NCBI GenBank assembly: GCA_964504365.1
Contig: CAZDDW010000005.1
Span: 1,630-65,629 of the forward strand
DNA length: 64,000 nt
Source of the DNA: an uncultured Gammaproteobacteria bacterium
Lineage (GTDB): Bacteria; Patescibacteriota; Patescibacteriia; UBA9934; CAZDDW01
Direction: 5' to 3'
Part shown: one piece after another, positions 1-32,275 of the stretch
Layout: each line of letters starts with the position of its first letter
Numbering within the stretch: position 1 is the first letter of the stretch
The notes under the pieces: model-generated
The model's database searches: none
What the model saw: the letters and a program-made list of their open reading frames with translations, nothing else
What the model was told of the DNA's origin: nothing
Program-made: the position numbers and the translations under genes

Positions 1-98
1 CCCCTCCTTTCTAAGGAGGGGGTTAGGGGGAGGTTCTGTGTACAATTTGTCACTCAGAACCCCCCTTTAATCCCCCCTTGGAAAGGGGGGAGAGACAT
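1..98. repeat. G5/C5 multi-hairpin repeat element, copy A (three consecutive C-run/G-run hairpins; may be truncated at window edge)
   Basis: cccctcctttctaaggaggggg / gggggaggttctg...cagaacccccc / ccccccttggaaagggggg; same architecture recurs at 31745-31930 and partly at 38813-38853. Confidence 0.6.
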
Positions 99-8312: not shown

Positions 8313-8554
8313 GCGGAACCCTTCAGGGTTCCATTTTGTTTAGCCGGCCACGGATGACTCGGACATTCTTTTTGTGAGAAGCACTCGGCCTATTCGTAGA
8401 ATGATTAAAGAATGTTGTCAGGCCTCGTTCGGGTTCCGCCGGGACCGCCACCGTTAGTTGTAATACGAGATAATGATGTGGGCCCGGCTCCACATGTTCT
8501 CACAAAAAGAATATCCTCGTCATTTATATCTGACGATCAGAAAAGTGGCCGGCC
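8313..8554. repeat. ~210-bp TIR element (GCCGGCCAC...GTGGCCGGCC) with fused upstream terminator hairpin, copy 1
   Basis: near-identical copies at 27855-28300 and 41855-42090; internal inverted repeat ACATTCTTTTTGTGAGAA / TTCTCACAAAAAGAATAT. Confidence 0.8.
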
Positions 8555-8600
8555 AATTAAAAAGACCTCGCTGCGTGCGAGGTTTTGTGGTACGTGAGAT

Positions 8601-10639: not shown

Positions 10640-10897
10640 ATGAATGATGTAAATATTTGCCAATCATGCGGCATGCCAATGAAGGAGGAAGTGGACTACG
10701 GGAAGACTGAGGATGGGAGTCCGAGCTATGAGTACTGTGCTCATTGTTTTCAGGAGGGGAAATTTACTTTTGAATGTGGATCAGTGGAGGAGTTTGCCGA
10801 ACATGTGCTTGAGGCAATGGCTGGATCTGAGGAAGCACCTGAAATGGACAAAGAAGAAATGTTGGTTGTTTTGAAAGGGTTGGGGAGGTGGAAGTAA
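10640..10897 (+). CDS. zinc-ribbon domain small protein
   Basis: 85 aa; CxxC...CxxC (CQSCGM ... CAHCF). Confidence 0.5.
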   Translation: MNDVNICQSCGMPMKEEVDYGKTEDGSPSYEYCAHCFQEGKFTFECGSVEEFAEHVLEAMAGSEEAPEMDKEEMLVVLKGLGRWK

Positions 10898-10898
10898 A

Positions 10899-10970
10899 AA
10901 AGTAGAAAGTAGAAGGTAGATAGTAGAAAGATTCAAAATCTTTCTACTTTTAACTTTCTACTCTCTACTA
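10899..10970. repeat. palindromic array of GTAGAxA heptamers (copy 1)
   Basis: agtagaa agtagaa ggtagat agtagaa ag - loop - inverted copies; related arrays at 38006-38083 and 40392-40478. Confidence 0.8.
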
Positions 10971-19296: not shown

Positions 19297-19384
19297 GGAA
19301 TGACGCCCGCAAGGGCGTCATTTAAATTAAAACACCCCTACCGTTTCGTCCGGTGGGGGTTGTTGTGTTCTTGCGTTCGACGGC

Positions 19385-21722: not shown

Positions 21723-21862
21723 GGCTAGCTCCTTTGATTGGGTTGCAAGAATCGTGTTAGGAATGAACAGAAATAGATATCAGCATAGCATGAATAAGCC
21801 CGTTTGTCAAGGCAATTAAAACACCCCCACCGTTTCGTCCGGCGGGGGCGTTTGTTCTGGCT

Positions 21863-27854: not shown

Positions 27855-28300
27855 GTCAGAAACGTAGCGGAACCCTTTAGGGTTCCATTTTGTTTTTGGC
27901 CGGCCATGAGGACTCAGACATTCTTTTTGTGAGAAACACTCGGCCAGGACTAGGTAAAGTGAAAGAAAGATATCAAGGCCTCGTTCGATGTTCCGCCGGG
28001 ACCGCCACCTTTATGTGATTAAACGAGATGATGGTGTGGGCCCGGCTCCACGTGTTCTCTCAAAAAGAATATCCTCGTCCTTTAATATGGCCGGCCACCC
28101 ATCTTGCCGTAAGAATAAAATGACGAAGGGTTTTGAATTGAGGTACGATCGGAGGCCGGGCTGCCAATATTTCTTCGAGGTCCCCACAACGGTAATCGTC
28201 CGGCCGACGCCGAGTGAGGCCCGATATCATCCCTTCATCACACCACGAATAGGCCGAACGCTACCACAATCAAAACCCTGAGTCATTCAGTGGCCGGCCA
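27855..28300. repeat. TIR element copy 2 with fused terminator hairpin and a ~200-bp nested insertion bounded by GGCCGGCC
   Basis: module 27898-28098 matches copies 1 and 3; extra module 28099-28300 ends in a second GTGGCCGGCCAATAAAG end. Confidence 0.75.
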
Positions 28301-31715: not shown

Positions 31716-31744
31716 CAGGATCAACAGGCGTAAGCCTGTCTTTT

Positions 31745-31930
31745 GTTTGCCCGGCCACAGGGAGCCTCCCCGTACCAGACGCCCCGCGTCGGTACGGGGC
31801 AGGCAGGGTTTGTTGTTTCCCCCTCCTTTCGAAGGAGGGGGCTAGGGGGTGGTTCTGGTTATAAAATAGTCTCAGTACGATTGTACCCAGAACCCCCTCC
31901 TAACCTCCCCCTTAGAAAAGGGGGAGGGAA
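31745..31930. repeat. G5/C5 multi-hairpin repeat element, copy B (plus preceding GC hairpin)
   Basis: ccccctcctttcgaaggaggggg / gggggtggttctgg...cccagaaccccctcc / tcccccttagaaaagggggaggg. Confidence 0.7.
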
Positions 31931-31979
31931 CAAAAGGTTTTCCTAATAAAAAATCCCCGATTATGATCGGGGGGGGGTG

Positions 31980-32267
31980 CTATACGCGCTCGACCCAGTT
32001 GTACTTGTGCCACAGGTCTCCTGCAAATGGGATCAGTCCAAGCTTCTGAAAGCTGTAGAAACCTGGAAATTCAGCAAATCGTATCTGCTGATCTTGTTCA
32101 CTGATTTCAGCAATCGTAACTGTGTTTACACGGATTTCTTTCAGCCTGAAGATGTAAACATGGATCCTAACCCGCTGCCCAACAGTGAGTCCTTCCGGGC
32201 TCATTATTTGTTTTGGTCCTCGTGGCAGTCGTTTTCGAGACTGAAGTGCGTCTCTACGAAAGTGCAT
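31980..32267 (-). CDS. hypothetical small protein downstream of trmH-like gene (strand choice uncertain)
   Basis: 95 aa; abuts methyltransferase stop; minus-strand terminator ccccgatcataatcgggg + T6 at 31945-31975; competing + ORF 31977-32279. Confidence 0.35.
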   Translation of the reverse strand: MHFRRDALQSRKRLPRGPKQIMSPEGLTVGQRVRIHVYIFRLKEIRVNTVTIAEISEQDQQIRFAEFPGFYSFQKLGLIPFAGDLWHKYNWVERV

Positions 32268-32275
32268 TTGCCTCC

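Follow-up and report, generated by a model that had tools for sequence, protein, structure and literature searches.

Candidate triplex-motif repeats of the BoxC/PIT/TMECO kind in a Patescibacteria genome

Five short G-run/C-run units were found in a window of 64 kb (the whole stretch of DNA that was analysed), arranged as two doublets (copies A and B) and one solo unit (copy C). By sequence they are class II purine-motif intrastrand triplex motifs, and they probably represent the BoxC/PIT/TMECO kind of repeat in a CPR genome. By comparison with relatives, the units are lineage-specific insertions in a housekeeping region and not conserved regulatory parts of murF or dnaX. The window lies within JGI metagenome contig Ga0118720_1000196 (98.5 kb), and protein homologues place its host among Uhrbacteria-like Patescibacteria/CPR, with G+C content of 46%.

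Anatomy and non-randomness of the units

Two clusters with three G-run/C-run hairpins each are present at window positions 1-98 and 31819-31927. The original prediction assigned one architecture to both; the two copies and their three-hairpin look hold, while the anatomy had been misread and the mirrored third block missed. The repeat family it proposed is genuine, and a third copy, a solo unit within 38814-38850 inside a RimK-like ORF, was found when all runs of five or more G or C were listed. A unit is about 40 nt long and is read on the strand with both G-rich blocks, in the order C-rich stem, loop of 3-4 nt, G-rich stem, loop of 3-6 nt, second G-rich block, and CTG. This second block mirrors the G-rich stem and is not its complement, the pairs of stem and third block being AAGGAGGGGG/GGGGG(A|T)GGTT, AAGGGGGAGG/GGAGGGGGTT, and AAGGGGGGA/AGGGGGGTT. 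Copies A and B each combine two units of opposite strand, the second G-rich blocks of which point to the centre, and the apparent middle hairpin arises because these inward third blocks and the CTG/CAG flanks pair. The centre between the two units, flanks included, is 22 nt long in A and 36 nt in B, and the two sequences differ. Beyond the triplex block, the GGTTCTG flank is kept in 5/5 units.

The left half-unit of copy A (1-35, plus strand; L001:9898-9933 on the source contig, with the first base just outside the window) consists of the pyrimidine stem (C)CCCCTCCTT, loop TCT, purine stem AAGGAGGGGG, loop TTA, and third block GGGGGAGGTT. It is a class II motif of 10 triplets with 0 mismatches. 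The centre (36-57) has CTG...CAG around a variable 16-nt core and pairs as the tip of hairpin 2. The right half-unit (58-91, minus strand) reads TCCCCCCTT / TCC / AAGGGGGGA / TTAA / AGGGGGGTT. On the source contig the complete copy is L001:9898-9989, and the window edge removes one base of it. Copy A begins 5 nt past the stop codon of a PBP gene and lies between this gene and murF, co-transcribed with the cell-wall operon. Its end had been put 5 nt before the murF ATG; the last structured base is position 91, and 11 nt separate it from the start codon.

The left half-unit of copy B (31819-31854, plus strand) reads CCCCCTCCTT / TCG / AAGGAGGGGG / CTA / GGGGGTGGTT. It is followed by the centre (31855-31890; CTG, a 30-nt variable core, and CAG) and by the right half-unit (31891-31927, minus strand; CCTCCCCCTT / TTCT / AAGGGGGAGG / TTA / GGAGGGGGTT). 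In the right half-unit the interrupting A is shifted relative to the left one, and the third block shifts with it. An extent of 31745-31930 had been claimed for this copy, which has to be shortened to 31819-31927, as 31745-31818 contains the end of the dnaX terminator and a GC hairpin that stands apart. The intrinsic terminator of dnaX (31724-31749, plus strand; stem 31724-31739 and T-run) is upstream of copy B and does not belong to the element. The GC-rich hairpin beside the copy is at 31768-31803 (CCTCCCCGTACCAGACGCCCCGCGTCGGTACGGGGCAGG), and a nested hairpin resembling it occurs inside a RimK insertion of a relative (L027). Downstream, and likewise not part of the element, is the intrinsic terminator (31955-31977, minus strand) of a small ORF at 31980-32267. 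Copy B is between two convergent terminators and outside both flanking transcription units, and no promoter-like site was found at it.

Copy C consists of one half-unit and its CTG flank (38814-38850, plus strand; unit 38814-38847) and sits in frame in the minus-strand RimK-like ORF 38071-39003. The coding (minus) strand reads CAG AAC CCC CCT CCT GTC CCC CCT TCG AAA GGG GGG AGG and is translated as QNPPPVPPSKGGR.

The differences between copies A and B had been seen as compensatory-looking, and none of them proved to be of the Watson-Crick type. One loop base is different in the H1 loops of A and B, and the A/T difference in GGGGG(A/T)GG has no matching change on the opposite arm of hairpin 2. 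The variation follows the triplex code, with A or T opposite an A-T pair, and in 5/5 units of the window the third blocks obey G.G-C, A.A-T, and T.A-T. 

Our own scanner, written to the ITxF rules of Holder et al. (2015), was run on the window. It asks for a pyrimidine stem, a purine stem, and a reverse-Hoogsteen block in succession on a single strand, with 6-15 nt per stem, 1-6 nt per loop, and no more than one mismatch. This gave five class II motifs in 64 kb, exactly the five half-units, and no class I motif. Each of the five has a stem of 9-10 triplets and loops of 3-5 nt, and none contains a mismatch. In 100 dinucleotide shuffles the mean was 0.04 motifs and the maximum 3, versus 5 observed. 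The 22-nt pattern of hairpin 1 occurs only at A and B, with 0 matches in 100 shuffles. When folded as RNA, copy A is predicted at -66 kcal/mol (z -7.0 versus shuffles) and copy B at -130 kcal/mol (z -6.4).

Sites A, B and C in relatives, and other repeats

At site A, the gap between the PBP gene and murF is 8 nt in two relatives (L034 and L035) and 6 nt in a third (L036), versus 108 nt here; MurF of these relatives is 72-74% identical. At site B, 45 nt lie between dnaX and the convergent spoU-type methylase gene in two relatives with 71% identical DnaX (L037 and L038), where both genes share one bidirectional terminator, versus 560 nt here. The 560-nt stretch consists of the dnaX terminator, the GC hairpin, the doublet, the second terminator, and a 95-aa orphan ORF. 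Of this stretch between the two genes (window 31716-32275), the relatives lack about 515 nt. The orphan ORF (31980-32267, minus strand) has its own terminator and no Pfam match.

In the RimK alignment, the peptide encoded by the unit at site C is present in the window protein (TQNPPPVPPSKGGR) and in P0003, P0004, P0006, and P0009. P0002 (80% identical) and many other RimK orthologues lack it, the empty site being seen only at protein level. The closest relatives are represented by P0002, P0004, P0122, and P0243, orthologues of window proteins with 80-87% identity. At DNA level, the unit is intact in one rimK gene (L031) and oriented as in the window, and another rimK gene (L027) has a unit with two further nested hairpins in its loop. 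In a third (L029:340-380) the unit is inverted and matches the right half of copy A, taken as reverse complement, at 36/40 positions. The AlphaFold model of the window RimK-like protein has a mean pLDDT of 88. The only segment with pLDDT below 50 is residues 52-62, which is the inserted peptide and is modelled in a turn that joins two strands. RimK orthologues have a further variable insertion site at alignment columns 223-236, with PNAIRDGLEExSNGSLIRS in P0004, P0006, and P0008, GQGTPPIA in P0005 and P0007, and PPLPPIA in P0003. The DNA at this site in L027 (10640-10700) has small palindromes, not of the G/C-run type, and may be another in-frame repeat insertion.

The empty or shorter sites in relatives mean that sites A, B, and C are all secondary. 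Contigs from other samples with identical MurF, DnaX, and RimK proteins carry identical copies A, B, and C, and therefore no population polymorphism exists there. In the flanks of these genes in relatives (about 80 kb read), no other intact unit was found outside rimK. The family is small in the visible sequence, with five units in about 74 kb. The doublet pattern GGGGGN{3,9}GGNGGTTCTGN{8,38}CAGAACCCCC, which included the lineage-specific TTCTG flank, matched 3 loci in genome contigs and 6 in metagenome contigs, none of them from the source organism. All nine loci are from unrelated organisms of higher GC (0.53-0.70), and in viral contigs the pattern gave 0 matches. Protein representatives searched with the stop-free translation of copy A gave one match, P0241, and no evidence of widespread coding insertions. 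P0241 (61 aa) is a spurious-looking ORF of two tandem repeats of QVKLPPLIPPWKGGKPEKLVPSP. This peptide is encoded by a CCCCCC..TTGGAAAGGGGG unit that is almost the same as the right half of copy A.

Several other repeats were noticed. An intergenic element of about 215-250 nt is present in three copies, 74-87% identical, at window 8335-8590, 27890-28115, and 41870-42125. Each copy begins just past the terminator of a gene, and no Rfam match was obtained. Its consensus fold has a closing stem (GCCGGCCAC/GTGGCCGGC), a stem of about 20 bp (ATTCTTTTTGTGAGAA/TTCTCACAAAAAGAAT), and two inner hairpins, and the element could be a MITE or a structured RNA. Its 5' motif TTTTGTTTnGCCGGCCAC is found again at 31743-31762, beside copy B. 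Long GTAGA-rich palindromes (AGTAGAAAGTAGAAGGTAGA...TCTACTTTCTACT) are located at gene 3' ends at 10887-10969, 38008-38081, and 40385-40467, one of them between the convergent DUF6938 and RimK genes. They form a second repeat family with repeated GTAG motifs, terminator-like or REP-like. The repeat AATTAAAACACCCCyACCGTTTCGTCCGGyGGGGG has two copies, 88% identical, at 19325-19366 and 21814-21855, and is a different type of C-run/G-run hairpin, without the mirror block. A Dehalococcoidia MAG (OZ251529.1; L006:7100-7350) has a tandem array with a 101-nt period, each repeat of which combines a class II triplex motif with two hairpins, C7/G7 and GGGGGGGTTCTG...CAGAACCCCCC. This array has the same three-hairpin look as copies A and B in an unrelated phylum.

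Relation to known repeats and the third-block code

BoxC of E. coli, rediscovered as PIT elements and renamed TMECO (PMC4666352), is also known from other Proteobacteria (Bachellier et al. 1990s; Hoyne et al. 2000; Holder et al. 2015, PMC4666352). It follows the pattern CCCTCNCCC N3-6 GGGNGAGGG N3 GGGNGAGGG, and strain MG1655 has 23 copies, all intergenic and five of them as inverted pairs (PMC4666352). A TMECO oligonucleotide forms a stable triplex in vitro, and in vivo DMS footprinting and CD/NMR of the duplex gave no triplex signal (PMC4666352). Neither promoter nor terminator activity was found, the loci are unusually variable among strains, and no link to mobile elements was detected (PMC4666352). 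Purine-motif triplexes do not form in RNA (PMC4666352).

The units of the window share with BoxC/TMECO the order of blocks, stems of 8-10 nt, and the occurrence as solo units or as inverted pairs with inward third blocks. Both are mostly intergenic, without strand bias, and vary in presence among relatives, and the 3-nt loop TTA is common to copy A and TMECO type A. The BoxC pair between hrpB and mrcB of MG1655 (L039:146-236) has the same layout as copies A and B, i.e., stem, loop, stem, CCG or TTA, third block, 16-nt centre, and the mirror arrangement. In contrast, the stems here are CCCCCTCC or CCCCCC and not CCCTCNCCC, the units have an extra T.A-T pair of triplets and the conserved CTG flank, and the host is a Patescibacteria/CPR genome with 46% GC. 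Copy C is in frame in a gene, whereas TMECO is reported as always intergenic. The strict TMECO consensus gave 0 matches in the window, and the units are therefore a different sequence variant of the same kind. The units may form triplexes too; such folding is known in the literature only from TMECO oligonucleotides.

The REP-like label of the original prediction was right as a general class. REP/BIME and REPIN-RAYT systems are also short palindromic units, single or in inverted doublets, intergenic, and strain-variable. The units here differ from them in lacking the GTAG head and in having the mirror (triplex-type) third block, which is absent from REPs, and no RAYT was seen among the proteins of the visible 74 kb or so. 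Rickettsia palindromic elements (RPEs) are AT-richer, 100-150 bp long, and represent palindromic repeats that stand in frame in protein-coding genes and are tolerated as surface peptides. They were reportedly described by Ogata et al. in 2000. Copy C is similar to them as a palindromic repeat in frame in a gene, at the RimK loop with pLDDT below 50. RPEs are, however, unrelated in sequence and are not triplex motifs, and only one coding insertion site was seen here.

The third block was compared in metagenomic viral contigs, which were scanned with the stems fixed and the informative bases of the third block free. The pattern CCCCCTCC..GGAGGGGG NNN GGGGGNGG gave 104 matches at 90 loci in 94 distinct contexts with GC of 0.34-0.73; these 'viral contigs' include prophage-like and possibly host DNA, and therefore the abundance there says nothing on phage carriage. 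The free base was T in 54 matches, A in 47, G in 2, and C in 1, i.e., A or T in 101/104. For the pattern CCCCCCTT..AAGGGGGG..GGGGGGNN, an unbiased subset of 42 matches had AT in 19, TT in 19, and other bases in 4, and both terminal positions fit the triplex code in 40/42. The third block thus follows the triplex pairing code across many lineages, in about 150 related copies, which a model of hairpins only does not predict. Such compliance in about 150 independent metagenomic copies supports selection or copying on triplex-type symmetry and not on hairpins alone. The mirror symmetry could also reflect recognition by a protein instead of a triplex. At the viral-contig loci, 26 doublets face inward, their most common gap being 35 nt (versus 22 and 36 nt here), and solo half-units make up about 75% of the units. 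One doublet (L072) joins a CCCCCTCC-type unit with a TMECO-type (CCCTCTCCC) unit. Another contig (L099, IMGVR_UViG_3300005261_000056) carries 7 triplex motifs of the CCCCCTCC type within 14 kb.

Alternative readings and meaning of the repeats

A role as cis-acting RNA, whether as a stabiliser or processing barrier of the mRNA between PBP and murF, as a control of the murF Shine-Dalgarno sequence, or as a small RNA gene at copy B, is very unlikely. The predicted folds are very stable, and copy A is inside the operon with GGAG at -14 from the murF ATG, which would suit such a role. However, the relatives manage with a PBP-murF gap of 6-8 nt without any such structure, and Watson-Crick compensatory changes are absent. 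Copy B comes after the two convergent terminators and has no promoter-like site, copy C belongs to a coding region of the other strand, and a hairpin model gives the mirror third block no role. At the gathering threshold, Rfam recognised only two tRNAs in the window. A permissive search over copy B gave only sub-threshold noise of miRNA hairpins, with a miRNA hairpin model as the best at 27.5 bits versus the threshold of 73. The structured RNA proposed in the original prediction is accordingly at odds with copy B between terminators, coding copy C, both orientations, and the lack of an Rfam match. Its further proposal, that copy A supplies the ribosome-binding site of murF, is judged weak, as the GGAG at -14 is partly buried in the last hairpin. 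GGAG or GAGG at -18 to -6 of the start codon was found in just 8/50 window genes, so that Shine-Dalgarno use is sparse in this genome. With its structure modelled at -66 kcal/mol, copy A might possibly have acquired a secondary RNA effect on the PBP-murF operon, through RNA stability, translation, or a loss of tight coupling. Intrinsic terminators were considered as well: the C-run/G-run hairpins of the element are without a T-run and were not flagged, and the scans flagged the neighbouring terminators. At copy A the terminator scan gave one overlapping match, a weak 6-pair stem at L001:9884-9900 that crosses the PBP stop codon and reaches just into the element.

That the runs of five or more G form G-quadruplexes, as was also suggested, or that the element forms an i-motif, is extremely improbable. 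In no copy do four tracts of three or more G occur within loops of 12 nt, only two-tetrad arrangements being available, and the canonical pattern (loops of 1-7 or 1-12 nt) gave 0 matches in any copy, despite G4Hunter windows of 1.5-2.1 in the G-rich halves and -1.5 to -2.1 in the C-rich halves. Every G tract has a Watson-Crick partner C tract in its own unit, and the A or T at the mirrored positions would be left unexplained.

Mobility of the units was weighed in the form of a REPIN/REP- or MITE-type element, the inverted doublet of which would transpose as an ssDNA hairpin by a RAYT/IS200-like or other transposase. The CTG flank would then be the cleavage or recognition site, and the triplex-compatible mirror block a feature recognised by protein. 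The REPIN-like architecture of inverted doublets, the clean empty sites in relatives, both orientations at one RimK site, and the GGTTCTG flank conserved past the triplex block in 5/5 units speak for this, together with a possible 4-nt direct repeat TATT on both sides of copy A. Against it, the units have no GTAG-type REP head, and of the proteins in the window and its flanks with Pfam data (visible 74 kb or so), none has a Y1, RAYT, or other transposase domain. Solo half-units are common (copy C and about 75% in viral contigs), and Holder et al. saw no link between TMECO and mobile elements. The target-site duplication is from one site with flexible boundaries; of MITE features, inverted halves are present, and the TATT duplication is hinted at copy A only. 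No related IS was found for the units. On balance this reading is unlikely, and the units are called mobile from presence and absence only, because no transposase, convincing target-site duplication, or donor copy was found. It is similarly doubtful that the unit with its CTG flank is an actively mobile ssDNA element in Patescibacteria, whose hairpin-plus-third-strand shape would be recognised by a putative enzyme and which would land in either orientation between tightly coupled genes or, like RPEs, in frame within genes. If this were true, BoxC-type repeats, unexplained since the 1990s, would gain a transposition mechanism.

The reading preferred here is a dispersed repeat at the level of DNA, since copy B is outside the transcription units, copy C is coding, both orientations occur, and purine triplexes are formed by DNA only. 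Most likely it is largely selfish or neutral. The C-rich and G-rich arms would form a hairpin, and the second G-rich block, after 3-6 nt, would be available as a third strand. As the third block mirrors the G-rich arm and has A or T opposite each A-T pair, a single-stranded G-rich strand could lay it into the major groove of the hairpin, presumably with G.G-C, A.A-T, and T.A-T triplets. Spread or copying of the units would be by a process dependent on the structure of single-stranded DNA, and if a site is recognised or cleaved, the GGTTCTG flank is the leading candidate for it. By analogy with TMECO, the main consequence may be local structural instability, with insertion or deletion, and for the mRNA a transcribed unit would mean no more than additional stable hairpins.

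Many bacteria have BoxC/PIT/TM repeats in abundance, and we know of no accepted function or mechanism of their spread. The units described here extend BoxC-type repeats to a reduced CPR genome. They also offer clean pairs of filled and empty sites, with a gene junction of 6-8 nt that became 108 nt and a protein loop with the unit in either orientation. Spurious Pro/Gly-rich peptides arise from such units, which can also mislead predictions of RNA motifs, G-quadruplexes, and ribosome-binding sites.
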